A stretch of 64,000 nucleotides of DNA, taken from assembly GCA_946407375.1 (NCBI GenBank), contig CAMJNS010000001.1, positions 5,159-69,158 of the forward strand. The letters run 5' to 3'. Below, piece after piece: positions 8,093 to 32,477 of this stretch. Position 1 is the first letter of the stretch; each line of letters starts with the position of its first letter. The DNA comes from an uncultured bacterium. Lineage in GTDB: Bacteria; Muiribacteriota; Ozemobacteria; Ozemobacterales; Ozemobacteraceae. Below the pieces are notes generated by a model, which was given only the letters and a program-made list of their open reading frames with translations, had not been told where the DNA came from and did not search any database. The position numbers and the translations under genes were made by a program.

Positions 8093-11000
8093 CTATTTAA
8101 GAACAGCTATTTTCAAAGTATACTTAGCTTTTTTGCCCCAATTATTAGGATCTCTTACTTCAATTCTAGCAATATATGCACCATTAGCTACTTTTTTGCC
8201 TTTTCTGTTGCAAAGATCCCAACGAGCTTCGTAAACAAATGAATTCCCTTCGACTCTTGTAGCTTGCCTCATATCAATATTTCTAGCATCTGCTACAAGG
8301 TGTCCGGCAACATCATATATTTTCACACTTACTTCATCGGCATTTATCTGACTTCCTCTTACCTTAAATCTAATTTTTGAATAATTTTTTGCAGGATTTG
8401 GATAGCTAGATACATCTTCAATAACAAGAGGAACTATTGCCTGGAATCTACCTGCAACTATTGCGGCTCTATTACCAGCTAAGTCTGATATATTCAAGCT
8501 CAATTCGTGTTCACCAGAATGTAGAACAGGAGGTGTAAATTTAGCAACAGTTCCATCTTTGCTAATAATTACATCATATTCTTTGCCATCCATAACAGCT
8601 TTTACGCTGTCTCTATCTAATCCGGAAGCAAATTCTGATATATTCCAAGTAAATACAGGCTTAGTAGTCCTGATTGTCTTGGTAAGATCATTTTCTATCG
8701 AAGCTCTAGGAGCCATTTTGTCTTGCATCAAAGCAAATAGACTACCATCTTTTGTTGAGAATCTAGCAGTTCCACTAGCAAGAGTTGTCTTTAACAATTT
8801 CCAAGAATTATTAGAATATTCATAAAGACCAACAGTCTTATTTGATAGTTGTTCATTAGTCATTTTAAATCCTATATTAACAGATTTGGTCAATCTGTTA
8901 CTTGGAATGACCAGCTTGTAACCATCACTATATGGAACTAATTCTTGAACGGCTTTATCTGATTCACTGCTTATATCAATGCTAGCTCTGAGAGAAGTCT
9001 TAACTTCATTATTCATTCCATCCATTACTTCTGGCATAATAGAAGCTTTTGTTGTATCAGAAGCATTTTCAACTTTAATAAGCTTTTCTGTAAGCAACAT
9101 AATGGTTGAATTTGATTTTAATGAACCCTTTTCAAAGACAACAGTTGCAACTTTATCGGCAGAAACAATAGAAGCTCTTGAAGAAGCACTTACATAAGCT
9201 GTAGTAAAGCTGTAATTTGCAGTTCCTTCATTATTAGAAAGGTCACTTGCCACAACTTTAATTGTTGCTACACCTGCATAATTTGGATCAAGATGATAAC
9301 CACCTGTAAATATTCTGTTATTACCTGTAGCAGATAATTGAATACTATTTGCAACGGTTCCTGTTTGACTAATTATTGCTGTTGGTAAACCAGAAATATC
9401 TTCATTTGACTTAACAGCAACAACAATATCTCTTTCGTTACCAGGAGTACTAAATGCTGTAACTGTTAAAACAGGAGGTGTAATATCACGACCTTCAAAA
9501 GTAACAGAAGTATCACTCTTATTACCCGATAAGTCTTTAACGCCCTTAATCGTAAGAGTATAATTTGTTCCTTCTCCAATATCACTAGAAGAAGTTATTG
9601 TAACAGACTTGTTATCTGTTCTCAGTATTACTGAAGTTATAGGAATTTCTGAAGAACCTACAGCAAGTTTATAATTAGCAACACTAATGGCCGTAGTTGG
9701 ATCTACTTGTTCGTCAAAAACAACATTAAATTGTTTTTGTGAAGACAAACCATCATATGTAATTGCTTCAATTACAGGTCCTCTTGTGTCGGCTGTAAAT
9801 TTTGCACTGTTATTTCCAGCAGTAATAGAATCACCATCTATACTCTTAACAGTATCAGCAGGAACTGTTACTGTATATACAACATTATGTTGAGTTACTG
9901 TTAATGCTGGTGTAATAGATGCCATTACAACAGATGGATCACTTGGGCTTAATGAAGCATTGGATATTTGTAATCCTGCCGGATTCACTGGTGTTATAGT
10001 ATAAGCAGCACCAATGGTAGTTGATTCAACAGCTTGACTAAATACCATTTTTATAGAATCAAGTCCGACTTGTTCAACTCCAGTTAAAGCAAATACGGAA
10101 CGAATCAAAGTTATATCCTTTGTTAATGAACCTTCATTGCCTGCTAAGTCTGTTATTTTAATAGTATAAGTACCGTCAGGAACTGGAGAACCATTATCAT
10201 CATTACCATCCCAAATAGCATACAAATCGCTACCTGTTTTTACGGTAAAGATTTCTCTGATAATAGTAGATCCTGACATAATTTTAACAACACCAGTTCC
10301 ATCATCTAAAGGATTATCAGCTACAGTAGCATCTGTAATCATAATCTTTATGTTATGTAATCTAGCATTAAATCTATCTATTCCAGGATCTCCAACAGGA
10401 GTATTGTCTGCAGTTACTTTTTGTATGGTTATGTTAGTAATAGTTGGTGCAGTTCTATCTATTACTAATGTAGCACTTGCCTTGCTTGAAGAATTCAACG
10501 GAACCCCAAGGTTACCTGCTGTATCTACCAAGTCAACTGTCCAACTACCATTCAAAGCTTCAGAAGTAATTACTGAACCATTACCGTCAAAAGCAATAGT
10601 ATATCCTGAATTACCAAATGAATTCATAACATAAGTATTTACAATATCATGTTGATCAGGATCTGGATTTTTTCTAGACAAACGCATTTTCATTGTCTGT
10701 CCTAAATCACCGGTAATTACATTAATTCTTGCAGAAGTCTGAGCTAATGGGCTAAAGTAAGCAACATTATTAATAGTTTTTAGATTCTGGAACTGCCATT
10801 CCACAACTTTTGGAGCAGCATTATCATATATTATTTGTCCATCTCTGCTTCCAGCATTTCCAGCTTCATCAAAGAATTTTACAAGATAAGTAATATTGTA
10901 ATTAGATGTTATTAAAGTGCCATCATCACGTCTACCATCCCATTCTGCATACCATTCGGTTGCACTAGAAGCCTGATAAGCAGTAAGTCTTCTTACCAAG

Positions 11001-14000
11001 GTTGAACCATCAACAGTATAAATTCGAACTTCACCAGTATCACCATCTGGAGGAGAGTCAAAGGTAAATGTTATTGTTGCAATACCTAAACCTTCACCAA
11101 TACCATTTGGATAAGTTATTGTATCTTCATTGTAATTTGAACTGACTGAAGGGCTGAATGGAACATTGCTTTGATAATCATCAGCAGAATTAGCTGTAGT
11201 ATACTGCAAAGTTTTCAGAGTAACAGTATTAATTGTCGGACCCTTTGAACGAACATCAACATAATCTGCTAAAGTGATTGAAGACAAAGCATTACCTGCT
11301 TCATCGTAACCGCCAGTAACGTTAAAGAATGCTCTTCCTTGAGTTGTATTACCGTCAAAAGCAGCAGCATTTAAAAATTCAGCTTCTGTTGCACTGACCC
11401 ATCTACTGAAGTTATAGGTCATTACAATTGATCCAGCCGAAGTAACAAGTTTTAAGCTAGGCAAAGAAGAAGGATTTGTGCTTTGGAGCATATTTTCATT
11501 GAAAGTTACAACTACTTTCATATTGTTCTTGGCAGTAACTCCAACAACATCATTTACAAGTGGATTACCTGAAATTGTTGAAGTTGCAGTAAGAACAAGA
11601 GGAGCACAGTTATCAAATTCCATTGGATAGCTTGCTACTTGATTAAATCCTGATGGATACGAAGTTCCTTCCATTTTTTTGCTTAAATCAAAAGCATAAG
11701 AAGCATTATCGCTATAACTCATTGTTGGTCTAAATATATCTGTAAAACCTTCTACATGAACGTATACTGGTTCTCGTTGGAAAGTTCCAGATTCAGACAA
11801 ACCACTATTAGCAAATCTAATATAAGTTCTATTAATACCACCCTGGTTATGTTCTCCCCATTCAATAAAAGTACCAGTGTCGAGAAGAGTATCACCATTC
11901 TGAGTAAATAATCTTAAAGTAGGTGTTATACTTCTTGAAATAGGAACTCTTATATTACTTGAGAGAGTTGCTGTTTCAAAGCTAACTTCATAAATAAATG
12001 AACTAGCATTATATCCTTTAAACAAAGTTCTTCCGGAAAGACCTTCAGTTACTGGAGTTAAAGCTACAGAACAAATCTTAGGTTCTGAGTAAGCTCCACC
12101 GTCTGGCATTGTAGTAATTAAAGGAGCTCCATTATTGTTAGAATCAGCAAAAGGTTCACTTAAATTACCCCAAAGATCAGTGAAAGCTCCGTTTTCACAT
12201 CTAAGATAAAATTTACCTGTTCCCCAAGTTAAAATGGTATTAAGTGCCGTATCTGTCAATGGAATACGAACTGTTGTTGATGCATAATCATTTAATACAG
12301 TATAACTGTTAGCACCAGAATTCCAATTAACCATTGCAGGAATACTTCCTGAAGTTCCCAAACAAATGTTTTCACCGGAACTAACACTTTCATTTGAACA
12401 AATATATATTCTAGACAAGTCAGCAGGCATTGTTTTGCCTATAACCAAACTAGTTGCTGAATAATTATCTAAGAATAATCTTGCTCTTCTATTATTGAAG
12501 TGAATAGTCAATATAGGTGTTGAACTACTCAAATCAAGACTTACATCTGATGTAATAGAGAAAGGAGTTGTTAATGGAGTTAAGTCACCTATTATTGCAT
12601 AGCCTGGCAATATTGTATTAACTCTATTACCATTTGTATCTCTAATAAATGGAGGAGGATCAAATTCTGAATCGCTTATTTGCAAACGTATCTGATTAGC
12701 TCTGTTTCCATAAGTCAAAGCTATCCAATCTTTAGCTTCTTGAGATAATTTAATACCCAAAGAATAAGCATTACAACTTGAAGTATTATAAGTGTCACCC
12801 AAATCAAAAGTATCAGTACCTGGTTGCATTCTATAACGAGCATTCCACAATTCTGACTGAGTTGAAGTGTTATACCATATAGCTAGTTTGCTTATAGATT
12901 CTTCTGTTAATGTGCTCTTATCCATTGGCTTATCAAAGGTCAAATGTAGATAATCGCCATCAATATTAGTAGAAGCTGCATTATAACGACCACTGATAAG
13001 ATTTGGTCTTTCATAATAACTTGTAGTAGAGGTGATTTCCATTGGAGAACCTCTCAATACTGGAACTATCCAGTTATTAGCAACATCTACTCCAAGTCCA
13101 TTAGGATTATAATTAGCATCTGTAGTTTCTATAATCTGTCCTGGTTCATCATCTTTGCTAGCAATAGAGAAGTAAAGTGTTGTTTCACCCCAGTCTGCTA
13201 TTTTACCCTTTGAGGTAGTGCTTAACATGATGTAAACAGTATCAGTATTATAAGTAGTCGGAGAAATCTTGTCATAATCCTCTGGATCTGCAGAAAGAGG
13301 TGTTGAAGAAAGACTAATTGCAGTGCCCTGAGCCACATCTACATTTTTATGTAGACTCTTAACTCCAGAAACATTTGCTCTACCTATTCTTATATTGTCA
13401 AGATCAATTGTGGTAGGTTGAACTTCTTCTGAAAACTTTATGGTAAGCATTGCACCATCATAAGCCAAACTTTCAACAGTAGGTCTCTTTGTGTCTACAC
13501 CTAATGGAAAAGCAACGTCTTCAACGAAATTTTTATTACCAGCACCATCAACAACCCAGATTTTAAAGCTATAACTACCTAAATCAACTTCTGAAGTTGG
13601 AACAAAGTGATTATATCTATCTGTATAAGTTGTTCCAGCAACCGTTTCAAAAATAGTACAATTCACTCCTGTAGCAGGTCTAATCAAATATGTTGAAGTT
13701 GCATCTATTGGAGATAAATCAATATAAGCATAACCTTTACCAACAGAAGCATTAATACCTTCTGTTAAAGTAACCCTAACATGGATAGAGTCTGTAGCGA
13801 CACCATTCCATACGTTTACTCCAGACCAGCCATCTGAATTTACATCTACTCTATCTATATAGGTATCGATGTGAGAAGTGCTGATTTGCGGAGGTTTATT
13901 ATCCATTTTTATTTGAGGTGCAGGAGTTACTAAAGTTGAAGTAGCTGTATTATCTGCATCATCTGTTGCATAAACTCTTATTTTAACAATCTCTTCATTG

Positions 14001-17000
14001 ATAAAACGCCATTCATTTTCACCAACATCTTCTCCTGTTTTTCTTGTTCCTGTTGCAACATTAAATTGTCCAGTCCATATATCGGTTCCTGTTGAGCGAA
14101 CTAATGGAACAAAACCTAACACTTCACCACTATTTGGCATATAAAGAATTGCTGTAGCAGAAGCAAAATCATCAAAATTCTTTATTTCAGCTTGAACTTC
14201 CATTAAATCGCCAATATTAGCAGTATAAGAAGATATATTATCTCCATTTTCTTCAAGAATATTGAATTTAATGGTTGAACTAACTACTAATGGAACTTTT
14301 GTATCTACAGGAAATTCACCAGTTACAGTAGTTGTAAACATGGTTTCTGTATTTGAATCAGGGTGCAAGACTCTTATCATAAAGTCGATACTATCCGCAT
14401 CAGTTCCACGATTTGCTTTTGTTGTTGCAGAGGCAACAAATTCGCTAGTATATAGATATGGGTTATTGGTATCACCATCCCAAGTCATTTCAACCCAACA
14501 ACGTCTTTCAGGATGTTCAACTTCTCCTGTGTAAAACAAATTACTGTCGGAATCAGTAATACCGCCAATATCAATTACAACTTTTGTCGGAGGAGTATTA
14601 TGATCTTCAAAAGCTCCATCTAGATTACAACTAATTCTGACAGTATCGCCAGGATTAAGGATACCATTTGAATTTAAATCATCAATTATTGTAACAGAAG
14701 GGAAATTAACAGTTGGAATCTTAGAAATAAAACGAATTTCTGTCGTTTCGCCAACAGTCATATTTCCTGAAGAATCTTTTGCAATAATAGCTAGTTTATT
14801 CTTAGACAATAAACCTTCTGGAACAGTAAAAACAGCAGAATACTTGTTGCTTCCTGTTACGTTTTCCATAACAACTCCACCAGGAGGTTCCATATTGTTA
14901 TCAGAATATAATTTAGTAAAATCTAATAATGGAGATAATCCATCATTACCTGTTACATTTGCTTCTATCTTTAAAACATCATTTTTATTAGCTTCACCTT
15001 TGCGTCCTGTATCATAATTAAAAGTTACAGGTGATACAATGATTTCAGGTGGCTTATTATCTACGTTTATACTATTGGAAGTAGTTTCAATGGTCTGATT
15101 ACCATTAGCATCAGTTACTGTTACAGTAAGAGCTACTGGTTCATTGTTTGTTGAACCTTTCTTTGGCTGAATAATAGCTTCTGCCTTATAACCGCTTACA
15201 GAACTAATAACTGGCACTGATGATGCAGTATTATTATAGCCATATTTTGTCAAATCAACAGTAACACTAGCATTATCAGATAATTCTACTGTCAATGTTA
15301 CTGAATCTGTAGCATAAACAGGTGCAACAACAAATGAACCATCTAAATCTACTATTGAATTGCCATTTGTATCAGTAGTTTGAGTATAAGTCAGACTATT
15401 AATTTTTACAGGGCAATTATCTACAAAGTATGTTCTAGGAGCATTCTTTTCTACGAAGTTCCCTGCGTCATCTGTTATTTTAACTTTGAAAAGAACATCT
15501 TCACCATCTGTAGTTCCTTCTTCTACAGTATATGTATAAGACCATTGATTGTCACCCATATCTTCTAACTTTTGAGCAACAGGTCCGCCTAATTTATTTA
15601 AATTAACCGTCACAGATGCATTATCAAAGGTTGAAGGGTCTACATCTACAGTAAATTTAACCTGGTCACCAACATTTATAACATTCGATTTACCTTTTTT
15701 GCTAATATGGTTTACGCTGAAATCATTACAAATAGGTCTTACACAGTCAACAACGAATGGAGAAGAAATACCACTCATTTTGTTTCCTGCTTTATCATAA
15801 ACATTTGCAGTAAAGACATAGCTTGGGTTTTCAACAGCAGCATCAGCACAGTCTACTACTAAATAATATCTATTTAATGCAGTATCAAAGCGATCATAAG
15901 GGATAATACAATTACTTGAACTACCGATAATGGAAAGATCCATATAACAATAGCCTTCATCGGCATCATCTACAGGAACAATAATTTCGATTCTATCCCC
16001 TATATTGATTACACCGGATTTTGGATTATCTGTAAGAAAATTAATACCTATAGGCCCTACAACTGGTTTTGAGTTGTCTATCTTAACCTGTATTGCCCTT
16101 GAAACAGTATTTCCTGCATTATCTTTTGCTACAGCACTAAAATTAGTTTCATAATTTAAAGTACCTGCAGGAACTTCAAAAGTATATGTATACCAACCAC
16201 CACTATAAACGAGCTCGGTATTATCACTCTGTCCACTAAACACAGACAAATCCATTGTAACTGTTTCTCTATCGTGAATTGTTGAAGTGGAACTAGCTAA
16301 CTGAACTTTGAAAGTAAGTATGTCACCAGCCTTAACATATTTATGAGTTGACGAAAGAGCTGGTGAAACAGTAAATGTCGCATTTAATATTAAAGGAGGT
16401 TCTGTATCTACCAACATATTACCTGTGGTAGTATTCGCAATATTTCCAGCATTATCTTGAGCATAAACAACAAAACTGAGAGATTGGTCTATACCACCTG
16501 GTAATAATGGGTTAATAGATTCACTAACAATATGGTCTAATCTGTATACTCCGCCAGAATATAAACTCAATTCTGCTTTTTCAGAGCCACCTATTTTACT
16601 AATATCTGCATAAACAGTACCATTATCATAATTGCTTACTGTTGCTTGAATAGCAATTTGATCTCCTAATTTTACAGGTTGTCCAGGGTTGGTAACATTT
16701 ATGAATTGTCCTGAAGTAACTGTTGGAGGAAAGTTATCAACATATATTACAGGCATTGTAACTTGAGTAATAATATTTCCAGCAACGTCTTTAGCAGTTA
16801 CAGTAAATGCTCTCGGAATATTATCTTCAGAAGTATATTGCCCTACGGTGTAATTTAATTTAAAAGTTGTAGTTCCAACAGTTGGAGATGTAGAACCATC
16901 ATTAAATGGAATAATTTGATTGGAAACCCCACCTATAGCAGAAAAATCAACAAACAGAGTAACATCCGACATAAGAGATGACATGTCACCATATATTTCA

Positions 17001-18118
17001 ATATTATCATCTATAATAGCTACATTAGATAATATACCTTTGACAGGTTCAGTAATTCTGATTGATAAAGTTCTAAATTCAGGTGGAAGAGTATCTAATC
17101 TTATAAAATTAGTAGTTTTTATAGTTTCATTTTCAGCATTGTCTTTTGCAATTATTTGAAAACTAGTAGAAACATGTGAAATATTTTCTTCTGTAACGTA
17201 ATGTGTGTATTCATAAACAGCACTATTTCCAATAGTATCACCAGCAACCTTTTCCATAGTTACGGGTCCACCAGGGAAAAGAAGAGAATTAGAGGCCAGA
17301 ACAGTATCGTCATCCCATTTACTTATTACTGCCTGAATTTTAATAGAATCGCCAACAGTAACATATTGTTTATTGGAAGTTAAATTAACTGCTGTTGCAG
17401 ACTGGATAACAGGAGGTATAGTATCATAATTAATGGCCGAAGACTGCCAAGTTACAGCATTTCCTGCATTATTTGATGCAGTTACAGGGAAACTTAAACT
17501 GGTTCCTTCTTTGTTGGCTGGCATAGGTACGGAACATTTAAAGGTATCACCTGTAACCCCCATATCAACATAACCTAATCCTAATGCTGTTAAATCGGCA
17601 TACATTATTTCGCCATTATTAGAACTATTCAATTTAAATGAAATTTCTAAGACATCATTTTTTCTAAAAGTTCCATCAGAGCAAGAACCTCTATTAGTAG
17701 CAGGTCGTCCATTGGCAGAAGGTCGTTTATTATTTAGAACAAAACCAGAGACAGCAGATTTAGTACGGTCTGAATCATCATCAAATACGAAAGTAACTCT
17801 ACTATCTACATTACCAGCACTAACAGTATATATGGCAGAAAACATATTAGGTCCAATACGCATTAAAGGAAGCTGGGTAAAACCTAAAGGTTGCAAAGTA
17901 GTTACGTAAACCGTATCTGTTGCGTGATCTGATTTACAAGTTAATGTGATAGTATCACCTATTCCAGCAATACCATCACCATTTGCATCAGAAGTTAACG
18001 CAACCGACTGATTGGTTACTTCAGCATAACCCGATGATGTAATCATTAATAGGAGAATTAGCAATAAAATGCTAAAACCCGAATAGAAAAATCTGTTTGT
18101 TACCTTAATGTTTGCCAT
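8093..18118 (-). CDS. Giant surface protein (3341 aa): signal peptide, ~25-30 tandem Ig/cadherin-like domains, T9SS-type C-terminal sorting domain.
   Basis: N-terminal signal peptide (FSILLLILLLMITSSGYA). Domain-boundary motifs recur about every 110 aa (VDNFPPTV, VDTEPPLI, IDNSKPVV, VDNKPPEI, MDNKPPQI, VDTKRPTV, IDRTAPTI, ADTRGPVI, RDITPPVL). C-terminus YPNPAKNYSKIRF...VKIYDVAGHLV...GAYIARIEV...YTLKIAVLK matches the Por/T9SS CTD. The last ~600 aa are paralogous to the next giant gene. Confidence 0.85.
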   Translation of the reverse strand: MANIKVTNRFFYSGFSILLLILLLMITSSGYAEVTNQSVALTSDANGDGIAGIGDTITLTCKSDHATDTVYVTTLQPLGFTQLPLMRIGPNMFSAIYTVSAGNVDSRVTFVFDDDSDRTKSAVSGFVLNNKRPSANGRPATNRGSCSDGTFRKNDVLEISFKLNSSNNGEIMYADLTALGLGYVDMGVTGDTFKCSVPMPANKEGTSLSFPVTASNNAGNAVTWQSSAINYDTIPPVIQSATAVNLTSNKQYVTVGDSIKIQAVISKWDDDTVLASNSLLFPGGPVTMEKVAGDTIGNSAVYEYTHYVTEENISHVSTSFQIIAKDNAENETIKTTNFIRLDTLPPEFRTLSIRITEPVKGILSNVAIIDDNIEIYGDMSSLMSDVTLFVDFSAIGGVSNQIIPFNDGSTSPTVGTTTFKLNYTVGQYTSEDNIPRAFTVTAKDVAGNIITQVTMPVIYVDNFPPTVTSGQFINVTNPGQPVKLGDQIAIQATVSNYDNGTVYADISKIGGSEKAELSLYSGGVYRLDHIVSESINPLLPGGIDQSLSFVVYAQDNAGNIANTTTGNMLVDTEPPLILNATFTVSPALSSTHKYVKAGDILTFKVQLASSTSTIHDRETVTMDLSVFSGQSDNTELVYSGGWYTYTFEVPAGTLNYETNFSAVAKDNAGNTVSRAIQVKIDNSKPVVGPIGINFLTDNPKSGVINIGDRIEIIVPVDDADEGYCYMDLSIIGSSSNCIIPYDRFDTALNRYYLVVDCADAAVENPSYVFTANVYDKAGNKMSGISSPFVVDCVRPICNDFSVNHISKKGKSNVINVGDQVKFTVDVDPSTFDNASVTVNLNKLGGPVAQKLEDMGDNQWSYTYTVEEGTTDGEDVLFKVKITDDAGNFVEKNAPRTYFVDNCPVKINSLTYTQTTDTNGNSIVDLDGSFVVAPVYATDSVTLTVELSDNASVTVDLTKYGYNNTASSVPVISSVSGYKAEAIIQPKKGSTNNEPVALTVTVTDANGNQTIETTSNSINVDNKPPEIIVSPVTFNYDTGRKGEANKNDVLKIEANVTGNDGLSPLLDFTKLYSDNNMEPPGGVVMENVTGSNKYSAVFTVPEGLLSKNKLAIIAKDSSGNMTVGETTEIRFISKIPTVNFPSVTIIDDLNSNGILNPGDTVRISCNLDGAFEDHNTPPTKVVIDIGGITDSDSNLFYTGEVEHPERRCWVEMTWDGDTNNPYLYTSEFVASATTKANRGTDADSIDFMIRVLHPDSNTETMFTTTVTGEFPVDTKVPLVVSSTIKFNILEENGDNISSYTANIGDLMEVQAEIKNFDDFASATAILYMPNSGEVLGFVPLVRSTGTDIWTGQFNVATGTRKTGEDVGENEWRFINEEIVKIRVYATDDADNTATSTLVTPAPQIKMDNKPPQISTSHIDTYIDRVDVNSDGWSGVNVWNGVATDSIHVRVTLTEGINASVGKGYAYIDLSPIDATSTYLIRPATGVNCTIFETVAGTTYTDRYNHFVPTSEVDLGSYSFKIWVVDGAGNKNFVEDVAFPLGVDTKRPTVESLAYDGAMLTIKFSEEVQPTTIDLDNIRIGRANVSGVKSLHKNVDVAQGTAISLSSTPLSADPEDYDKISPTTYNTDTVYIMLSTTSKGKIADWGETTLYFSIASKDDEPGQIIETTDANYNPNGLGVDVANNWIVPVLRGSPMEITSTTSYYERPNLISGRYNAASTNIDGDYLHLTFDKPMDKSTLTEESISKLAIWYNTSTQSELWNARYRMQPGTDTFDLGDTYNTSSCNAYSLGIKLSQEAKDWIALTYGNRANQIRLQISDSEFDPPPFIRDTNGNRVNTILPGYAIIGDLTPLTTPFSITSDVSLDLSSSTPILTIHFNNRRARLFLDNYSATSLVIGKTMPADLSRIYICSNESVSSGENICLGTSGSIPAMVNWNSGANSYTVLNDYASTTVRIPLTDTALNTILTWGTGKFYLRCENGAFTDLWGNLSEPFADSNNNGAPLITTMPDGGAYSEPKICSVALTPVTEGLSGRTLFKGYNASSFIYEVSFETATLSSNIRVPISRSITPTLRLFTQNGDTLLDTGTFIEWGEHNQGGINRTYIRFANSGLSESGTFQREPVYVHVEGFTDIFRPTMSYSDNASYAFDLSKKMEGTSYPSGFNQVASYPMEFDNCAPLVLTATSTISGNPLVNDVVGVTAKNNMKVVVTFNENMLQSTNPSSLPSLKLVTSAGSIVMTYNFSRWVSATEAEFLNAAAFDGNTTQGRAFFNVTGGYDEAGNALSSITLADYVDVRSKGPTINTVTLKTLQYTTANSADDYQSNVPFSPSVSSNYNEDTITYPNGIGEGLGIATITFTFDSPPDGDTGEVRIYTVDGSTLVRRLTAYQASSATEWYAEWDGRRDDGTLITSNYNITYLVKFFDEAGNAGSRDGQIIYDNAAPKVVEWQFQNLKTINNVAYFSPLAQTSARINVITGDLGQTMKMRLSRKNPDPDQHDIVNTYVMNSFGNSGYTIAFDGNGSVITSEALNGSWTVDLVDTAGNLGVPLNSSSKASATLVIDRTAPTITNITIQKVTADNTPVGDPGIDRFNARLHNIKIMITDATVADNPLDDGTGVVKIMSGSTIIREIFTVKTGSDLYAIWDGNDDNGSPVPDGTYTIKITDLAGNEGSLTKDITLIRSVFALTGVEQVGLDSIKMVFSQAVESTTIGAAYTITPVNPAGLQISNASLSPSDPSVVMASITPALTVTQHNVVYTVTVPADTVKSIDGDSITAGNNSAKFTADTRGPVIEAITYDGLSSQKQFNVVFDEQVDPTTAISVANYKLAVGSSEIPITSVILRTDNKSVTITSSSDIGEGTNYTLTIKGVKDLSGNKSDTSVTFEGRDITPPVLTVTAFSTPGNERDIVVAVKSNEDISGLPTAIISQTGTVANSIQLSATGNNRIFTGGYHLDPNYAGVATIKVVASDLSNNEGTANYSFTTAYVSASSRASIVSADKVATVVFEKGSLKSNSTIMLLTEKLIKVENASDTTKASIMPEVMDGMNNEVKTSLRASIDISSESDKAVQELVPYSDGYKLVIPSNRLTKSVNIGFKMTNEQLSNKTVGLYEYSNNSWKLLKTTLASGTARFSTKDGSLFALMQDKMAPRASIENDLTKTIRTTKPVFTWNISEFASGLDRDSVKAVMDGKEYDVIISKDGTVAKFTPPVLHSGEHELSLNISDLAGNRAAIVAGRFQAIVPLVIEDVSSYPNPAKNYSKIRFKVRGSQINADEVSVKIYDVAGHLVADARNIDMRQATRVEGNSFVYEARWDLCNRKGKKVANGAYIARIEVRDPNNWGKKAKYTLKIAVLK

Positions 18119-18240
18119 ACTTATCTATTTCTCCTGTGGAGCCTTTATAGTTCCAAGTTTTTATTTACAAGACAAAAGCGTGCACAACAATATATAATGT
18201 GCACAGTATATTTTACTATAACATTAAATGTTTATAAAAA

Positions 18241-18300
18241 AAATACCTCGTGCATAATTTTTTATATTTTTTTATGCACGAGGTATTTTTTTTCTTTTTT
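18241..18300. terminator. Rho-independent terminator (bidirectional hairpin) downstream of lipoprotein gene 18309..19118.
   Basis: Perfect 13-bp inverted repeat atacctcgtgcat ... atgcacgaggtat, flanked by A-run and T-run. Confidence 0.65.
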
Positions 18301-18308: not shown

Positions 18309-19118
18309 TTAGAGTCCTGCTGCTATAAGAGTTGTATAAATTTGATAAACAGTTCCTGTTGTGGAAGTATCATCTGCTCGAGCTTGATAAATCTGAGTTC
18401 TAGCTAATTCTACTTGATTTCTCCAAAAATAAGCATAAGCAAGCATAGCATGAGCTTCTGGAGAGCTAACACCTATGCACGTATGTTCTATTCCTAATAC
18501 TAAAGTTGGATTAGACAAAGCTAATACGTCCGCCAGTAAATATATCGCTCTATCCAAATTAGAATCACCTGTAGCCTGAATCAAAGCCAAAGCATAACCA
18601 AGAACAGATTCTCTATAAGCTTTAGAATTTTTTTCACCCATCTGATAAGAGGCTTTAAAATCTTCTATACCTTCAAGAGTGTTGTAATATTTGACTTTTG
18701 CCCATCCTCTACCATTAAGAGCTTGTTGTCGCTGATCATCTGTAGCGGTAGGATCATTTATAACATTGCCAAAATAACTAATGCTTCCGCCATAATTACC
18801 TTCATCCATCAAAGACCAGCCTTTAACTATTAATTCAGCAGGTGTTCTTACATCTGTGCCGGTACCTGTCCCTGTTCCAGTATATGTTCCTGTCCCAGTG
18901 CCTGTGCTGGTACCAGTTCTTGTTCCTGTGCTAGTTCCAGTTCCAGTAGATGTTCCGGTTCCAGTAATTATAATCGGTCCTGTTGGGTTTTCTCCGGGTA
19001 AAGTTTGTCTACCACTACCATCACCAGAACTGCCACCACAACCAATTAACATGACAGTTGTTGCAAACAAAAATGAAAGCAACAGTTTATAAAACTCTAT
19101 CATGTTAACTTTTTTCAT
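18309..19118 (-). CDS. Lipoprotein (paralog B) with a (Gly-Thr)n repeat linker and a conserved C-terminal helical domain. Partner of the upstream giant adhesin gene.
   Basis: Lipobox (..LIGC), then GSSGDGSG and ~36 aa of GTGTSTGTGTSTGTRTGTSTGTGTGTYTGTGTGTGT. The C-terminal domain is homologous to 7329..8030 (AHAMLAYAYF, ARTQIYQARADDT). Confidence 0.7.
   Translation of the reverse strand: MKKVNMIEFYKLLLSFLFATTVMLIGCGGSSGDGSGRQTLPGENPTGPIIITGTGTSTGTGTSTGTRTGTSTGTGTGTYTGTGTGTGTDVRTPAELIVKGWSLMDEGNYGGSISYFGNVINDPTATDDQRQQALNGRGWAKVKYYNTLEGIEDFKASYQMGEKNSKAYRESVLGYALALIQATGDSNLDRAIYLLADVLALSNPTLVLGIEHTCIGVSSPEAHAMLAYAYFWRNQVELARTQIYQARADDTSTTGTVYQIYTTLIAAGL
18854..18962 (-). repeat. Imperfect hexanucleotide (GGNACN)n coding repeat that encodes the Gly-Thr dipeptide linker of the lipoprotein.
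   Basis: The + strand reads cctgtccctgttccagt...ggtaccagttcttgttcctgtgctagttccagttccagt. Its antisense frame gives the spurious PVPVPV ORF at 18856..19092. Confidence 0.6.
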
Positions 19119-19250
19119 TTATAATAATTCCATAAAAAATGATTTTGTATGTTATCGGAATATTTCTTGATAAAATTTAGATAAAATAATTAATTCTATT
19201 TTATTTATGATAGGTAGTTTGTATTTATTCTAAAGCTTCTATTTCTAAAA

Positions 19251-19283
19251 TAAAAAAATCGCTGGCTAAAGCCAGCGATTTTT
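19251..19283 (-). terminator. Rho-independent terminator immediately after the stop of the 4038-aa gene.
   Basis: The + strand is aaaaaaatcgctggctaaagccagcgattttttt: a 9-bp stem (atcgctggc/gccagcgat), 4-nt loop, and T-run on the minus strand. Confidence 0.6.
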
Positions 19284-22200
19284 TTATTTTAGAACAGCAA
19301 TCTTCAAAGTCGACTTAACTTTTTTCCCAGTTTCTGGATTAATAGCTTCCAGTCTAGCTATATAAACTCCATTAGCAACTTTCTTACCTTTTTTGTTACA
19401 CAAATCCCATCTAAGTTCGTAATTTCCATCACCTTTATCGTTAACATCATTTTCATCAAAATCTGCAACTTTATGACCAGCAACATCATATATCTTAACT
19501 CTGATATGACAATTAACTTCAGTGCTATTTGTTCTGATTCTTATTGTGACATTATTACGTGCAGGATTTGGATACTGAATAATCTGCTTAAATTCAAACG
19601 GTAATACAAGAGCAAATCTCATACTTCCAGTAGACGCCGTGTTACCAGTACGGTCTTTGGCAGTGATTGTTAAATCATGTTTACCATTAATAAGTTCGGA
19701 TAATGATTTAAACTTGAAGTTACCATTAGCATCAACTGATAAATTCTGTAATTTTGAATCTATTTTAGCTTCTAAGCTATTAGTATCTAAACCTGAACCA
19801 TAGTCTTTAATATTTCCAACAAATTCTGGTCTAGCAGTTTCAAAAGCTTTAGAAAGATCAATCGATTCGTCCAATTTTATAGTTGGTCCAACACTATCTT
19901 GCATTATTGCAAAAACTTGATTAGAAGTTATTTTTGCTTTAATTTCTTTATCAGAAGTAATATTTGCAGAAATAAACTTCCATGAACCATTCTTTTGATA
20001 GAATAATCCTAAACCTGGAGTCTGACTAGCTGTTTCTGGAACTTTTAATGCCGCTACAACTCCCTTATTTACTTTTGAAGATAATATAGAAGCTTCGTAA
20101 GCATCTGTTATAGGAGTAAGTTCGGAATTTGCAGCTTCTTCATCTGCAGATGCAACAGAAGCTCTGAGTCCTCTCATCTTCGTATACTCATTCTGCAAAG
20201 CTGTTTGTATTGTTCCTGTAGCTGTTTCATCTTTAATAATAGATCTCTTAAGAATTTTTACTGTAGCTTTTGATTTCAAACTATCTTCATTAAAGATTAA
20301 ACTGAATTGCTTATCATCATAAGTCAGTCTTGCACTAGTATTAGGAGCAACCGTAGCTATAGCAAAAGAATTTGAACTACCGCCTTTATTACCATTTAAA
20401 TCTTCACCTTCAACCTTTAATGTTCCTGATTGACCATTAGAAGATTTAAGAGAAGCTGCAGCCATAAACGCCAAATTATTGGATGAATTTTTCTGCATTG
20501 TCATAGTAATAGGTGAAGCTGTTCCATGAATAATTGTAAGTTTAGGTTCTCTTAACAATTCTTCATTACTTAAAGCAACAACAATTATATCGTTTTCATT
20601 TGCAGCATTAGAAAATGCAGCTATTGTAAATTCTGGTGGAGTAACATCACGACCTCTAAAAGAGAAACCTGTCAAAGATGTTTCACAAGCATTATTTCCT
20701 AATTCATCTTTTACGCCAGGAGCTTGAATTGTATAAATAGCATTTTCAATAAAAGTTCCTGATGCACAAATCATAACACTCTGATTATCTGGTTGCATTA
20801 TTACATATGAAATAGGAATTGTGTTCCCAGAAGCATCTTTGATTACATATGATGATGGTGATTCACCAGATTCTTTATCCAATATTTGGTCGAATATGAT
20901 TACTATATCGCTTTGAGTGTTTACATTTTCAAAACTAGTATTGACTATTGATGGACCTTTAACATCGGCAAAGAAAACCGCAGAGCTTGCTGTTGGACTT
21001 ATACTATCACCGTAAATATTACGTAAATCATTTCCAACAGTAAGAGTATAAGAAGCACCATGAGTCATTCCATTTGCAATAAATGTCAAAGCACGTTCAT
21101 CTTCAATTTGTATATTGCTAATTGTTATTGAAGGTTTGATACTAAAAGGAGTTGCCCCTAGAGAACCTGGATCAATACTGTGATTAAACCAAAGTTTAAC
21201 AGTATTCGAACCAGTTTGAACAGCAGGATTCATTGCTTTGAAAGGAGCTGTTATTGCATTGGTACTTGTAGCATTAACAGAAGTATTTCCACAAATATCA
21301 GATACTTTAAATGTATATACACCATCAGTAACGGTCTTGCCAGAACTATCCTTTGCATCCCAAGAAGCTTCTAAGTTTCCTGCATTATCTACAATATTTA
21401 TTCTGTTAATTCTGACTCCACCTGAATTATATACATCAACATAGTAAGCCCCTGTAGCTGTTGCAGGTTCTTCTGTTTCCAATGAAATAATTAAGGGTCT
21501 GGTTTCACTTGGAGCACAGTTTTGTCCCACCGTTATTCCATTTATCTTAAGTGTAATTGTTCCTATTTCAGGAGCTTTTGTATCTATAATCATTTGATAT
21601 AGATCTTCAGTATCTGAAGCAGCAACATTACCAGCTTGATCAACAAGACCTATGTCGTATACTCCATCAGGCATTAAATCATCTGGATTACCAGTATCTC
21701 GGCTATATTTAGCTCTAAATGCAGTTTTCCAAGAATTATTTGATGTAGAATTTAACGCATATGTATCTGTAGATATGCTACTTCTTACACGTAATTTAGG
21801 TGTATTTTCTACAACATCTCTAAATATTACTTCAAAATTAGTATGTCTATAAGGATTCAAATAAACTACTCCAGAAGCAGGAAAATCAACACCACCATTA
21901 AAAGCTAAGGTTGAAAAAGTTGGTGCTTCACTATCAACACTCCAATTATGAGCATAATAAGAAAGGTCACCATTTACATCTGCAAGCCTTATAATAAATG
22001 AAGCTGACGTAGCAACTATTGGTTCAGTTACAGCATTCCAAGTAAAGGTTGCCATGTAATTAGCATCAACAGCAACTGCATAAGATGCTACAAATACTTC
22101 TTGAGTTATTTGATTTATTATTTCTTTCTTTAAGAATGTTACATATATAGTTGAAGGATCACCGTCTGGTTCATCAGAAAGAACAATCGACATTGTTGCT

Positions 22201-25200
22201 GCATTTGGATATACATTAAAGCTGAATACATCGTCATAATGATATTCTTCTCCACTTTCTAATGTAGCACTAGCCGTTGTTTCCTGATAAGAGATTGTCT
22301 TAACAGAACTAACTATAGGACCACCTGACTTAATAGAGATTTCCCCGAAATCAACTTCAACTCTGTTACCAGTTAAGTCTGTTCCAAAAATATGATAAAC
22401 ATAAGTTCCCTGAGGAATCATATTCTGAACAGCTACAGCAGTTTCAAATATTGCGGTATCACTAGCAATAGCTGTTGTTTCTATTCTCACTAGTCTACAA
22501 GGAATAGAATAAGAAGTTGTTGCTATTTCAAGATATTGATATGCTTCATCAAAAAGTGATTCATTAAATTGAACACTGAATGTTGCCATACCAGCTTCGC
22601 CAGAATTCAGATAAAGTTGTTCTGTAATTGTCGCAACTAATACTTCTGGTGCTGTTTTATCAATTAAAACAGTTCTGCTTGCTCCAATAGAATCATCTGT
22701 AGCAAGAACAGCAAAATTACCAGCCATGTCTACTGCAGTAATTGTGTAAGTTCCTTCAGGAATATCAGCATTAGTAGTATCAGTTAATTTGCCATTATAA
22801 ATATAAGTCGTATCAGAAATACTCATATTATATGTTCTTGTTGCAACAATATCAGAAGTTGGACTAGACACACCAAATACAACAAGTCTTAAAGCATCGC
22901 TTGCATTTAGATTAATATTAGCAGTTAAACTACCCAATATATCTGGATTATAATAATAAACTAAATCGCTAGAAGCAGATGAAACTCCAGTCAAAGTGAG
23001 ACTAGTTACTTTTGGTAAAATACTGTCATAATTCAGAACAAAATTATTAGAATCAGTAGCTATATTTCCTACAGAATCTATTAATTTTATTGTGAAAGTT
23101 CCTGCATATTCTATTGGTGCAGCAATACTTGGAGTGAAATCGCCGAAGAAATCTTCATTAACAGTTATTTCTGTCATTCCATCAACCAAAGTATGTGTTG
23201 CAATTTGAACTCCAGTATTATCAAACAATAACAAAGTATGGTCTAATGCATAAGGACCTTTACCAGTTGCATATTCTATTGTTAATGTTGCAATATTAGG
23301 TTCTACTCTAAAGCTAAAAGCTGTATTTGTGAAACTATCATCAGTTAACAGTATTTGTTTTGTTGTAAGAGTTGAAGAGAAATCTGGACTTTCAGAAATA
23401 ACTTCTACTTCACCATAAGTAGCTGTTGCCACAATATTACCAGCAAGATCTTTTGCTCCACTAACAATAATAGATGCTGTTCCAACAGGGAAACTAATAG
23501 TATCAAATATGTTATCTGTTACAAAAGTACATCTTTGATCGTCTAACCAAGCGTCAAAAGTTAATGTTGCTACATCTCCGGTATCTGTTGCTAGCAATAG
23601 TGTAGGATTAACATTAGTATTCATAGCTTCATCAAAAGTAACCAAAAACATAGCTGTTTTTCCTATAACAGTTAATGGATTATAAGTTTCATCAGAAGCA
23701 TAAGCTCCCATAACTTGAGGAGGAATACTATCCACAATTATTGCAATAGAAGCAGTATCATTAATATTACCTGCTAAATCAGATACCGTTAAAGTATATT
23801 TTCCATCAGGTAAAGCACTACCAAAACTAATTGTATAGCTATCTGACGCAGATATGATATATGTCGTTGTAGCAGTAGAAGATGCAATCAATAGCAAATC
23901 TTCTGTTTCTGTAGTGGTAACAGTAAAAGTAGCTGGATTTGCAGAGCTATAATACTTTATACCACCAGTGTTTTCTCCAACATCTCCATCATCAAATGCA
24001 ATATCAGTAACATCAGGAACAGTTATATCTGTTTTGAAAGTCCATTTCAAGTAACCACCTGTATCTGGACTACAATTTTCTAAAACATCTACTATTTTGA
24101 AAGTATAAGTTGCATTAGCTTCTGGTATACCATCAGCAACCCTCCAAGTTGCGTAACCAGGATTTGCTTCACTAACAGTCAAAGTAGCAATATTTTCATT
24201 TGACTCATTGAAAATAAGTAACCTATGAGGAGTATTAAACGGACCACTGACATAATCGAGTTTAAAGGTTACAGAAGCAGAATTCCCTGTATTATATTTA
24301 ACAGGATTAAAGGGTCTATTTTCTAATACTTCATCACTTATATCTGGTTGTAAAGTAAGAACAGTCATTTCTCTAACGCCAGGACCTATAGGTTGAACAT
24401 CTGTAGTACAAGTTGCTGGTGTAGAATCTATCCAGTTTCCAGCTAAATCTCTAGCTTCATAAACCTGATAATTATAAACACCAACAGGTAAAGAAGTTCC
24501 TATAGGCATAGCATTAGTGAATGAGGCAGTCATCATGTCATCGCCCCATCCAACAAAATTCATTTCTATATAAGTGCTATAAGTAGTTGTTGCTAATACC
24601 AGATGAGGAGTACTGCTAGTATCCATCAATTCGGCAAACTTAACAGTAAACGTTGCCATTCCTGTAGCAGTATTTGCGATTCTATCATCTGGACCAGGTA
24701 AAATACTTTCTACGCTAGGTGGAACATTATCTACTATAAACATTAGAGGCGCTGCATTGGTATGTAAATTACCTGCTTCATCTGCCAACATCACCGTATA
24801 TAGGTTGTCACTAAAACCCCAACCGAAACTATCTGTGTATATTGAGCTACTTGGAGTTGTTGTGCTCAAAGTCATAGTTGCAACTGGAGACATAGGAATA
24901 GAATATGAAGCTACAAGCAAGTTCAAAGGCTTATTATAATTTCCATTCAATCTTGCTTTGAATGTCATATTATCTAATGTAGAACTATAATAATATATTC
25001 CTTGACTATATGTTGCAGCACCGCTAAGCGACATTGTTGCCACATCAGGAGCAGTAGCATAGTAATCGATGCTTCCCACAACATCAGTTATATTATTAGC
25101 AATATCAATTATCTTTATTGAAATAGTACTATTGGTTGTTGGAATGGAAGTAAAATCTCCAGCAGTAATTGTAGCTGTAGCATTAACTCCATCCTGCGTA

Positions 25201-28200
25201 ATAGTAGCACTACCTATCTGAACATCTGACGAATTATACAAACAAAGAGTATGTGGAAGATTTTCCGTGTCTTCTGACTGGTATTTAAAGCTTATTTTCG
25301 TATAATCAGGTGATGCATCAAAATTTAAAGGCTTGCCTGCAACTACAGTATTTATATCAATAGTATTTCTTATACTATTGAGCTGAATACTATTGGCAAC
25401 TATTTTTGGTACTTCTGATCTTATAAGCATATAAGTTGTAGAACTAACAAAAGCATTACCAGCTAAATCTTGTCCGCCAGAAAGCTCATAAGACCAGGTT
25501 CCGTTAATAGTAGTAGCTGTTATTGGCTCATCAATTGTAAATACAGCTCTGGTATCAGAATTTTCCCAACGACTAAATGTGAAACTTATAGTCGCTGCAC
25601 TTGTAGCCAACACTAAGCTAGGATTATAAGCAGTATCCATTGTTTCTGAATAATCAACATAGAAATCATCTCGCCCTGCTTCTAACGTACCTAAAAGAAC
25701 AGGTCCAACATCTGTTGCTGTAGGAGCCACATTATCTATTATAAACGCAGCAGATGCAGTGCTAAAACCTGTTACGCTAGTTTCACTCTGCTTGGTTCTA
25801 TCATATACATATGACGCTATGAGAACAGGAGATTCATCTCCAAATACATCCTTTAAACCGTATAGTCTTAATTCAGCTTCAACACCATCAACTTCTTTGG
25901 TAAAATCTTCAGAAGTTTTGAATGTAACTATGGTTCTTTCAGTATTTCTTACGGTTCTAGTGCTCCAACCTTCAAAAGATGCTGAAGCAATTCTATCTCC
26001 TGTTGAAGTTTCAAATATTGCTGCAGTTGGATTATTCGATTCAGTAGTAGAGAATGGTATAGGATTTGCACCAGCTTTAAATTTAGTAACTTCAAAATCA
26101 ATAGTAAAGTTTCCAACGTCTTCTTTTGTTGGAGGCATATCTGTTACAGAAACAGCTATTAAAGAAGGCGTTTCATCTGGAACAGTTTCTACAACATCAA
26201 CAGCTCCCGGAGATGAAGGCTTATATCTAGTATTACCCATACCCCACATATTAATGAAAGAATCTTCATTAACTTGAAGTCCCCAATTTGTTGGACTACT
26301 AATATTATAATAATCCATTATTTTAACTATATCGTTTTCTGTTAAACTAACATTTACCGTGGTGCTAGCATAGTCATTTAATGTTGTGGTAATAGAACCA
26401 CAGCTAAGTTGTATACTTTTGCTTTCATCGTCAAGATCAAATAATGTAATTTTATTTAAATGTAAGTTAGAACCTTTTTGATTAGTTATAGAGGGTAATC
26501 CCATTTCTGGTTTTAATTCATTTTCTGTTCTATAACTATCGCTAAACAACCAAACTCTGTCGCTAAATGTAAGTTTTAGATTAGCACCAGTCAGATTTAT
26601 AGTTGGAACAGGATCAGACAATATATTTAAAGCTGGAATTGGAGTCGTTTGACGATTATCTGCTATAATATAAGGTGATTCTATCGTATATAGCTTCAAA
26701 TCTTTATCTAGAATACTTTTTACCATCTTGTTGGCAGATGATTTTTGTGCAAATTTTAAAGTACTATCTGGATTCTGAGTTAACCTATTAGCAATCCAGT
26801 CTCTACCACTATCACATAATATAATTCGTAAATTCTTATTATCAGTCCACACACAAGTATCTGCTTGTTGAATTACATACCATGAATCATAAGCTACATC
26901 ATGAAACTCTGTCCTTCCATCGCTAGGCTCATTTACATAAATTACAGCATCTGAAGCGACAAAAGTTGCTTTATTCATTTCTTGAGAAAATTCAATATTA
27001 AATGAAATTTTAGTTGGCCAATTATGAGTCATGGAGAAATTAACTATGCTTGGTGCTTCTCTCCAAGTATAATCTGTTATTGTTATTGGGAAAGCAGAAT
27101 ATGAAGCAATCCAGTTACCATAATTGTCTGTAGCTGCTGCAACATCTTCATCTCTTCTTACTTCTAAATAAAGAGGAGAAGAAGCCCAGTTAGCAACTTC
27201 CTTTTGTCCGTCTAAACCTAAAGTTACAACAACTTCATAAAAGTTATCTGTCCAAGAAGCTAATGAAGTATCGGAAAGATCCAGTTTTGAAGTTGCTCCA
27301 ATCGGAATAGTCGCACTTCCTACGAGGAACCATTTACTTTCATTTATATTATAGATATCTTCTGAAAAACTTATGGTTAAATTTTTACCATCAAAAGTTA
27401 CACTTGTTACTTCGGGCGCTTTTGTATCTAGTGATAATTCATGAATTGCCCCGCAAGGATAACCTGCTTCATCATAAATACTAATAGGAATGTATACACT
27501 TCTGTAATCTGTTTGTATGAAAGAGGCTATATCTAATCCGTTACCAGTATTATTCACCAAAGAATTTGTTATTGAGGCAAGAATATAATTTGAATCTCCA
27601 CCTAAACTGCTTAAATCTAATGCTGCTGTTCCTATTATTGCTCCATCAGAAAGAGTGGCGCTTGCTACAAGCAAATCTCTTGTTAATCTATTTGTTCCTG
27701 AACCTATATTTAATATTCCTGTTTTTTCGTGATCAGGATCAATAACCAATGAATAACTGGCTATACTTGGATAAACATTTTTAGCAACAAAAGTAGTTAT
27801 GCCTGATGTTGGGGTAGCTACATTTGCTGCATCATCAACTACTGAAATAATATAAGCAAATTCATCTAGATTTAGACTTCCCCAGGTTCCACCGCCTTCT
27901 ACAGCACCAGGAGCTTTAATAACAAAAGACATTTCATGTCTATTCATGTCACTATTATATTCCATTTGCTTAGTAATAGTTGCAACACCTGGATCAATAG
28001 AGAAACTTACAGAAGCTACTGCATCTAATCCTGAAGTCATGCTAGCATAAAAAGTTATAGTATCACCTATTCTTGCAATATTTGAATTTTTAGGAGGTAA
28101 TAGGCCATCGTTTCTAGCACTTATTTCCGCTCCGCAAAGTGAAGAATTTATTATAGGAACCAAACAGTCTACTGTTTTAATTTTCTGTGATTTAACAGTT

Positions 28201-31358: not shown

Positions 31359-31517
31359 GTCTCCCAGAATGAAGCCAATTTGGGAGAATATTAGCTCCAT
31401 TCAAATTTTATCTAATATATTAGTTCCTGCCTAACAGATTAATTTATTTTTGAAAAAAGTACAAGCCCTTTTAGAAAAAAACACTGGGCAAAGTATAAAA
31501 AAATAAAAATATACGAA

Positions 31518-32330: not shown

Positions 32331-32422
32331 AGCTTAAACAATATTAATAATATATTTATTTACTCCGCAAACGCAAGTATCTATTCACAGAGTAATTTTC
32401 CTAGAACTAAGAAAATTTCAAT

Positions 32423-32471: not shown

Positions 32472-32477
32472 TTTCAT

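Follow-up and report, generated by a model that had tools for sequence, protein, structure and literature searches.

A family of tethered TPR lipoproteins in Riflebacteria is encoded next to giant Ig-repeat proteins with T9SS-type-A-like C-terminal domains

We find that a family of TPR lipoproteins essentially confined to Riflebacteria is, nearly always, the conserved downstream partner of Ig-repeat proteins of 1,700–4,000 aa that bear a T9SS-type-A-like C-terminal domain (CTD). In the window, i.e. the whole stretch of 64,000 nucleotides analyzed, the genes lie on the minus strand in the order giant A, lipo1, giant B, and lipo2. Our working hypothesis, to which we give an even chance, is that lipo1 is a Riflebacteria-restricted, lipid-anchored TPR adaptor dedicated to the neighboring giant and carried on a flexible spacer that drifts in length unit by unit. 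TPR lipoproteins with disordered tethers are an already known kind of protein; what is new here is a phylum-restricted partner of giants with a linear motif and an X-Thr stalk. Riflebacteria are uncultured and are reported to be among the phyla in which unknown gene families are densest (PMC10849945), and in the Riflebacteria literature we found no mention of the TPR lipoprotein family or the giants. The three-fold paralogous, phylum-wide pairing of a TPR lipoprotein with a CTD-bearing giant offers a testable handle on the export or anchoring of the largest envelope proteins in Riflebacteria and bears on whether CTD-dependent secretion outside Bacteroidota employs different accessories. We see the main value in this giant-plus-lipoprotein module and not in the repeat within the tether, for which an earlier note had proposed hypervariability, an idea that is weakly supported.

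In lipo1, a Sec/lipobox signal is followed by a Gly-rich stretch, a linear motif, a disordered (X-Thr)n spacer, and a four-repeat TPR domain (Table 1). The N-terminus reads MKKVNMIEFYKLLLSFLFATTVMLIGC, with the lipobox L-I-G-C and Cys27 read from the sequence, and the bacterial lipoprotein pattern [LVI][ASTVI][GAS]C is found as ...TTVMLIGC27 in lipo1 and as ...TLSIGC22 in lipo2. A protein search returned 45 lipo1 homologs at E≤1e-3, and in an alignment of the two window lipoproteins with the best 40 of these 45 (alignment A1), G26 and C27 are each at least 90% conserved. We conclude from the sequence that lipo1 is a lipoprotein with predicted acylation at Cys27. The disordered tether spans aa 28–91, such that ~64 residues separate the lipid from the TPR domain; in an AF2 model generated with the family alignment as input, pLDDT is <50 at aa 26–41 and 48–70 and mostly <50 throughout aa 26–88. 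Within this tether, and with the family form GRQxLPGENPxGP, lies the linear motif, in which G36, R37, Q38, L40, P41, G42, E43, P45, and G47 are each at least 90% conserved in A1 and which AF2 models with low confidence (the 10-residue blocks spanning aa 31–50 average a pLDDT of 47–48).

Table 1 Features of the lipoprotein and giant genes in the window
Feature	Position	Strand	Basis
lipo1, 269-aa TPR lipoprotein (ORF under study)	18309..19118	-	ORF and homologs
lipo1 signal peptide and lipobox, aa 1-27 (L-I-G-C, Cys27)	19038..19118	-	Sequence; near-invariant G26/C27 in alignment A1; AF2 helix 6-24
Conserved linear motif GRQTLPGENPTGP, aa 36-48, within the disordered lipo1 tether	18975..19013	-	A1 conservation
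(X-T)n spacer, aa 52-88, imperfect ACN-GGN hexanucleotide repeat	18855..18965	-	Sequence, TRF; disordered in AF2
lipo1 TPR domain, aa 92-269, four TPR hairpins and capping helix, conserved loop aa 199-218	18312..18845	-	AF2, Foldseek, profile
lipo2, 233-aa paralog, short G/S tether aa 23-60 (nt 7851..7964)	7329..8030	-	Sequence comparison
Giant A, 4038 aa, Sec signal, Ig-like repeats, T9SS type-A-like CTD	19284..31400	-	Pfam Big_13, FlgD_ig, Por_Secre_tail
Giant B, 3341 aa, collinear paralog of giant A, Sec signal, Ig-like repeats (Big_13, FlgD_ig), T9SS type-A-like CTD	8093..18118	-	
Terminator-like hairpin between giant A and lipo1	19247..19290	-	-26.3 kcal/mol, z -7.6, then U-run
Terminator-like hairpin after lipo1	18236..18293	-	-28.2 kcal/mol, z -11.6, then U-run

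The C-terminal domain of lipo1 is, as modeled, TPR-like, which answers the question left in the earlier note of whether it is TPR-like or SusD-like. AF2 predicts nine helices between aa 93 and 266, with per-block pLDDT of 90–98 across aa 91–269, and almost all of the top 50 Foldseek matches in the PDB are TPR or TPR-like helical-repeat proteins (probability ~1.0, E ~1e-3 to 1e-2); the leading matches (a kinesin-light-chain-like TPR protein, MamA, consensus TPR designs, PilF, and NlpI) do not point to any single family. A SusD-like fold was rejected, with no SusD model in a Pfam scan at E≤10 and no SusD structure among the Foldseek top 50. Likewise, the family profile matches hundreds of multi-TPR proteins. 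A HMMER search over 1.84 billion cluster representatives returned 19 clusters at E<1e-30 and 149 at E<1e-10; the weaker matches are mostly long multi-TPR proteins aligned in several stretches. The individual Pfam TPR models remain below the gathering score on lipo1, no Pfam or NCBIfam model reaches its cut-off on the family, and members are annotated at source only as "hypothetical" or "TPR repeat protein", in agreement with the suggestion of the earlier note that the lipoprotein family looked new. We conclude that the family is a distinct, undescribed branch of the TPR superfamily. Of note, NCBIfam also returned "invert_tail", fusolisin, SslE, ClfB, and serine-rich matches; those inspected lie on the signal peptide, the G-rich stretch, or the XT tract far under cut-off and were set aside as low-complexity noise.

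In the protein search, Candidatus Riflebacteria account for every named member of the family proper. Our scans located about 135 loci (species-representative genomes, 64; metagenomes, 71), nearly all of them labeled Riflebacteria or Ozemobacteraceae; the few with other labels (e.g. Methylomirabilis, Erysipelotrichia, and Actinomycetota) are probably mis-binned MAGs. The closest relatives of the window lipo1 come from rumen and gut samples.

Each genome contains two to three family paralogs. lipo1 and lipo2 are 32% identical over their whole length (E 1e-22), and the exact sequence of lipo2 is present in other assemblies. While the two lipoproteins had been thought to share only the C-terminal domain, which is indeed common to both, they also share the signal peptide, the lipobox, and a motif after the Cys, which reads GRQTLPGENP in lipo1 and GRYSVPSDIV in lipo2 and is recognizable across lipo2 orthologs as GRYxxPxEIP. 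Their linkers do differ as initially described, i.e. (GT)n in lipo1 vs the G/S-rich GSSSGTGRYSVPSDIVGPGGRSGDSGGSSGGGGGIVET in lipo2, where ~38 residues separate the lipid from the TPR domain. The median Cys-to-TPR distance is 56 aa in the lipo1 group vs 35 aa in the lipo2 group, and the lipo1 tether is longer than the lipo2 tether in every genome carrying both. A long XT tether in the lipo1 group vs a short G-rich tether in the lipo2 group is a stable property of the ortholog groups. Members of a third paralog group are shorter (~211–221 aa) and, like lipo2, have Gly/Ser or acidic linkers with few Thr residues. The earlier note had missed these ortholog-group-stable tether types, the post-Cys motif, and the coupling to giant genes.

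The two giants are 30% identical across their last 1,200 aa, and their CTDs are 48% identical. Against the TIGR04183 cut-off of 23 bits, the score of giant A is 27.1 bits, and giant B, at 21 bits, falls just short; both also match the C-terminus of PorU (E 3e-21 and 2e-16, respectively). Within the 64-kb window, we recognized none of the T9SS core machinery (SprA/Sov, PorV, PorU, and PorK-N). Because giants A and B are collinear paralogs and lipo1 and lipo2 are paralogs at a similar level of identity, we conclude that the giant-plus-lipoprotein module was duplicated as a unit.

The arrangement in the window recurs among the relatives. Upstream sequence of 6 kb or more is available for 51 loci; at 42 of these, an ORF ≥1,500 aa long on the same strand terminates no more than 400 nt away, and four of the nine loci without such an ORF are start-trimming artefacts. 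The distance from the giant stop to the lipoprotein start is typically 3–5 nt in these relatives, and at least 70 of the 85 distinct upstream-ORF tails end with ...WDLxNxxGKxVANGVYxAxI...KxxxKIAVL[KR]. The third paralog group adjoins upstream proteins of ~1,700–1,800 aa with C-terminal regions homologous to those of the giants and the same end motif, and lipo1 and lipo2 are spaced by ~11 kb on seven of the eight contigs that hold both. The exceptions form a sub-clade from gut and rumen (L001–L005 and L067–L069) in which the upstream neighbor is OmpH-like or an unrelated 1,690-aa protein; specifically, in L001 there is no adjoining giant and the ortholog lies after pseudopilin-like and OmpH-like genes. 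These exceptions indicate that the lipoprotein can persist without an adjacent giant A. In the window itself, giant A and lipo1 are 165 nt apart, and because of this gap and the two strong flanking hairpins (Table 1), lipo1 is probably its own transcription unit there. Both hairpins were found by folding; a consensus promoter/terminator scan had missed them.

How might the lipoprotein act on the giant? In our adaptor model, the cognate giant, or a form of it on the way to export or anchoring, would be bound in the groove of the TPR domain, and the lipoprotein would be dedicated to it as a membrane-located chaperone, receptor, or anchor; the GRQxLPGENPxGP motif may dock, as a docking or sorting peptide, to a second partner, and the tether would be a flexible hydrophilic spacer that sets the reach and is loosely constrained in length. 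The terminator-like hairpins that bracket lipo1 in the window, the 165-nt gap to giant A, and the sub-clade without an adjacent giant A count against this model. The CTDs of the giants are also more similar (48%) than the lipoproteins (32%), and if binding is paralog-specific, the CTD alone may not be the determinant.

Accessory proteins dedicated to a single large cargo have a precedent in Bacteroidota, where PorP was found to form a complex with PG1035, and SprF to bind SprB, and it was suggested that cargoes with type B CTDs may anchor via their own PorP-like proteins (Gorasia et al. 2022, PMC9143113). As in our loci, the accessory gene lies beside that for a very large adhesin with a T9SS signal (e.g. 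SprB), with one partner per cargo. However, the SprF/PorP-like proteins are outer-membrane beta-barrels for type B CTDs, whereas the protein described here is a TPR lipoprotein beside a type-A-like CTD in Riflebacteria and has no homology to them; binding of the giants by the TPR lipoproteins would, therefore, be analogous to cargo binding by SprF/PorP-like proteins. PorW/SprE is a TPR lipoprotein of the T9SS and acts in export of CTD-bearing cargo. Unlike members of the lipo1 family, it is ~four times larger, single-copy, a core component of the machine, and not linked to a cargo gene, and no sequence match to it was found in NCBIfam scans of the family. A further-reaching proposal, which we put forward tentatively and consider doubtful as a whole, is that the TPR lipoproteins represent a novel type of receptor or anchor dedicated to giants with T9SS-type CTDs as cargo in a phylum outside Bacteroidota, in which one paralog would serve each giant, GRQxLPGENPxGP would dock to the export or anchoring machinery, and the (X-Thr)n stalk, possibly glycosylated, would set the distance between fiber and membrane.

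The tether is highly regular at the peptide level. In aa 52–88 of lipo1, all 19 alternate positions are Thr, and the 18 x positions are occupied by G (13), S (3), R (1), and Y (1). This periodicity is far beyond chance, and the nucleotide repeat is its shadow. An (X-Thr)n linker characterizes the lipo1 ortholog group, in which it is often a pure (GT)10–24, and across the family the x positions are filled by G, S, N, D, R, Y, W, Q, K, or A. In some lineages, GT is replaced by T/P-, T/S-, or P/G/D-rich linkers of similar length. Because GT is replaceable by other linkers of similar length, we suggest that the tract acts as a spacer rather than as a specific structure. Disordered linkers are common among lipoproteins; about half of the outer-membrane lipoproteins of E. 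coli have one, and these linkers are important for sorting (El Rayes et al., bioRxiv 10.1101/2021.01.05.425367). The lipo1 tether resembles in particular those of E. coli LpoB and RcsF, which likewise combine a lipid anchor and a long disordered linker with a folded domain that reaches a distant partner, but the linkers of LpoB and RcsF are not dipeptide repeats and have no conserved internal motif, and function and partners are unrelated. LpoB spans the periplasm. A literature search for bacterial Gly-Thr linkers gave nothing relevant.

An alternative that is compatible with the adaptor model and differs from it on the role of the tether is that the X-Thr tract is an O-glycosylated, mucin-like, rigid stalk that holds the TPR domain, and with it the giant, off the cell surface, with selection acting on the Thr periodicity. 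Thr/Pro-rich linkers of secreted bacterial enzymes are often O-glycosylated, and, consistently, Thr is retained at alternate positions with x free despite saturated synonymous change, every indel preserves the register, and some lineages that lack GT use T/P- or T/S-rich linkers (L026, L030, and L087). The linkers of L061 and L128, however, are Pro/Gly/Asp-rich, those of lipo2 and the third paralog group are low in Thr, and the tract contains no known sequon. The genes for a UDP-glucose dehydrogenase, a DegT aminotransferase, and a nucleotidyl transferase nearby could supply nucleotide sugars to such a stalk but are equally easily explained by LPS synthesis. We consider a glycosylated stalk unlikely.

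It is also unlikely that lipo1 is a divergent housekeeping TPR lipoprotein, i.e. BamD, a secretin pilotin of the PilF/PilW/Tgl type, or NlpI, and that its adjacency to the giants reflects general clustering of envelope genes. The surroundings in the window are indeed rich in genes for envelope biogenesis, including lptFG, a LmeA-like gene, lpxA/C/D, bamA, an OmpH/Skp-like gene, and a type IV pilus/T2SS-like cluster, in keeping with the pseudopilin-like and OmpH-like genes before the L001 ortholog. BamD (YfiO) and PilF/PilW/Tgl are, moreover, all-TPR outer-membrane lipoproteins of ~250 aa with a lipobox; PilF (2ho1) has the highest query TM-score among the Foldseek matches, at 0.50, and TIGR03302 matches 14 of the 42 members (best E 1.5e-4). 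Yet these matches miss the cut-offs widely: the best listed match to BamD/YfiO (TIGR03302) reaches 15.7 bits (P0013) vs a cut-off of 81.4, the PilW/PilF pilotin model (TIGR02521) 15.1 bits (lipo2) vs 154, and the Tgl pilotin model (NF033762) 11.3 bits (lipo1) vs 225, and all three assignments were rejected; in the NCBIfam scan, which included TIGR03302, lipo1 has zero matches at E≤0.1. A PDB profile search returned BamD and LapB at E 0.005–0.2 only, and in the strongest of the BamD matches (5efr, E 0.005) it is in part an artificial Gly/Ser linker that is aligned to the GT tract. The Riflebacteria family also differs in its four TPRs, ~60-aa tether, and linkage to giants, and two to three paralogs per genome, each behind its own CTD-bearing large protein with gaps of 3–5 nt, are unexpected for a single-copy factor.

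Finally, we considered the length of the tether. The earlier note had located a hexanucleotide repeat at 18854..18962, which is right to within one codon (Table 1), and had proposed that slippage in it could make the tether variable in length without a change of frame. At the DNA level, TRF reports 18913..18965 with a period of 6, 8.8 copies, 63% matches, and a score of 36 (usual threshold 50), and the longest perfect period-6 tract in the window, ACTGGAACTGGAACT, comprises 15 nt (≤2.5 units), such that the long pure tandem repeat of a contingency locus is absent. We simulated the purity to be expected by recoding each XT peptide at random according to local codon usage. In the window, the longest perfect tract (15 nt) equals the simulated value (15.0 nt), and the family means are similarly close (15.1 nt observed vs 15.6 nt simulated); L070 alone exceeds the simulation with a pure GGAACT x6.8 tract of 41 nt (P<0.002). 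We conclude that selection on composition and register maintains the tract as a repeat at the peptide level and that its synonymous sites are saturated.

The tether does nevertheless vary in length between strains. Exact-sequence look-ups of lipo1 with either candidate start codon gave no match and thus no contigs with the same allele to compare; clusters at ≥90% identity, however, contain members of different lengths (e.g. 262, 264, and 256). Among full-length members of such clusters, all length differences lie in the XT linker and are multiples of 2 aa, while the length of the C-terminal domain is constant, and some pairs with 0/180 mismatches in this domain differ by one GT unit. In close pairs, 52 of 52 linker gaps are multiples of 6 nt (6 nt in 42, 12 nt in six, 18 nt in two, and 24 and 30 nt in one each); these pairs are non-independent and, by a rough estimate, represent ~10 distinct events. 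Assembly collapse is unlikely to account for these differences, given the scrambled codons. L008 and L071 are identical over the 549 nt of the C-terminal domain and differ by 12 nt in the linker, where GGAACT units are inserted beside identical units, which is the signature of slippage. Compared with L141, its nearest relative, the window shows a single 6-nt indel, and the two diverge at 12.9% of nucleotides in the linker vs 4.1% in the domain. We also note that every indel is a multiple of 6 nt although the codons are scrambled, possibly because the X-T register is under selection, which would make the tether more than an inert spacer.

The comparison across strains thus supports one part of the proposal, in that the length polymorphism exists, is confined to the linker, stays in frame in 6-nt steps, and separates close strains, while the tract itself is no purer a hexanucleotide repeat than random codons would give. 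Hypervariability is not supported. Near-identical strains differ by only 1–3 of ~18 units, and single alleles recurred unchanged across three or four independent samples (L136–L138 and L141–L144). We therefore regard it as highly unlikely that the (GT)n tract is an adaptive, slippage-driven, contingency-like device that varies in length rather than switching on and off and thereby creates population heterogeneity in reach or antigenicity: steps of 6 nt between strains with 0–4 substitutions in the 540-nt C-terminal domain (L008/L071 and L002/L067), the unit insertions in L008 vs L071, the faster divergence of the linker, and the pure tract of L070 all agree with it, but perfect tracts at the simulated length, small changes, recurring alleles, the non-repetitive T/P or P/G/D linkers of other lineages, and a 1-codon polymorphism in the G/S linker of lipo2, as expected of any low-complexity linker, do not. 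We conclude that the tether is probably a slowly drifting, loosely constrained spacer rather than a contingency locus. Whole X-T units of 6 nt are gained or lost, probably by occasional slippage on micro-repeats of 2–3 units, and the length variants would persist as near-neutral polymorphism rather than as programmed hypervariation. More generally, caution is called for when a dipeptide repeat seems slippage-prone in translation, as the underlying DNA may be codon-scrambled and the repeat an ordinary drifting linker.

A similar mutational behavior is familiar from the period gene of Drosophila, in which a (Thr-Gly)n tract is encoded by an imperfect ACN-GGN hexanucleotide repeat and natural length alleles differ by whole units; the period product, a clock protein of eukaryotes, lacks a lipid anchor and is not homologous to lipo1, and the analogy applies to the mutational behavior only. 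In ~1.5 Mb of family loci scanned, all 73 (XT)≥6 tracts that contain four or more GT are from the TPR lipoprotein family. The same kind of tether is found in another lipoprotein family (P0041–44) and in a lipoprotein from Polyangiaceae (P0045).

Across the family of the 269-aa TPR lipoprotein lipo1, the motif GRQTLPGENPxGP in the tether is more strongly conserved than the TPR domain itself, and it is located in a region of lipo1 that is predicted to be disordered. Its probable role is that of a signal for docking or sorting. Proteins P0041-P0044, which form a second lipoprotein family of 337-352 aa, have a tether with the same layout as that of lipo1 (CGGGGG...NPxGP...(X-Thr)n). Because these proteins use the same design with a C-terminal domain unlike that of lipo1, the tether looks like a reusable cassette. 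The antisense ORF with a (PV)n sequence is very unlikely to be a real gene, as it is just what the lipo1 (GT)n tract gives when read in reverse complement.

As a slippage substrate, the tandem repeat AATTCCT (7.6 copies, 91% matches, score of 85-99 in the tandem-repeat finder TRF) is far purer than the GT linker of lipo1. It occupies the gap that separates the LptF/G gene, whose stop codon is at 32478, from an LmeA-like gene that starts at 32330, and it could change the spacing of a promoter or leader. A second heptanucleotide repeat, AGATAGA, is listed in the table.

Both of the paralogous giant proteins carry a T9SS type-A-like C-terminal domain with the sequence features YPNPA..., IYDVAGH... 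and ...KIAVLK. A T9SS is not a known trait of Riflebacteria, and no T9SS core genes were recognised within the 64,000-nt window.

The 186-aa ORF in the envelope-biogenesis block gave no significant match in the family search, and the type IV pilus/T2SS-like block that follows also holds an unannotated 846-aa ORF. Neither the 511-aa nor the 579-aa ORF matched an entry in Pfam or NCBIfam; the N-terminus of the latter is pseudopilin/GspK-like. In L001, a relative locus, the lipo1 ortholog lies directly 3' of three pseudopilin-like ORFs and one OmpH-like ORF.

Coordinates and properties of the features discussed
Feature	Position	Strand	Remarks
511-aa ORF	2846..4381	+	
579-aa ORF	4511..6250	+	N-terminus KRRGLALFFTICTIGVVCLIVF
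Giant protein, 3341 aa	8093..18118	-	
78-aa antisense ORF	18856..19092	+	Pro-Val rich, (PV)n
Motif GRQTLPGENPxGP	18975..19013		aa 36-48 of lipo1; near-invariant in family
Giant protein, 4038 aa	19284..31400	-	
Heptanucleotide tandem repeat	32420..32472		AATTCCT on plus strand, AGGAATT/AGGAGTT on coding strand; TRF
Envelope-biogenesis block	39315..45438		LpxA, LpxC-FabZ fusion, LpxD, BamA
186-aa ORF	43151..43711		Between LpxD and BamA
Heptanucleotide repeat AGATAGA	49548..49584		x5.3, 93% matches; directly after ORF 47780..49549
Type IV pilus/T2SS-like block	50939..63818		Minor pilins, T2SSE ATPase, GspF/PilC, PilM-like gene
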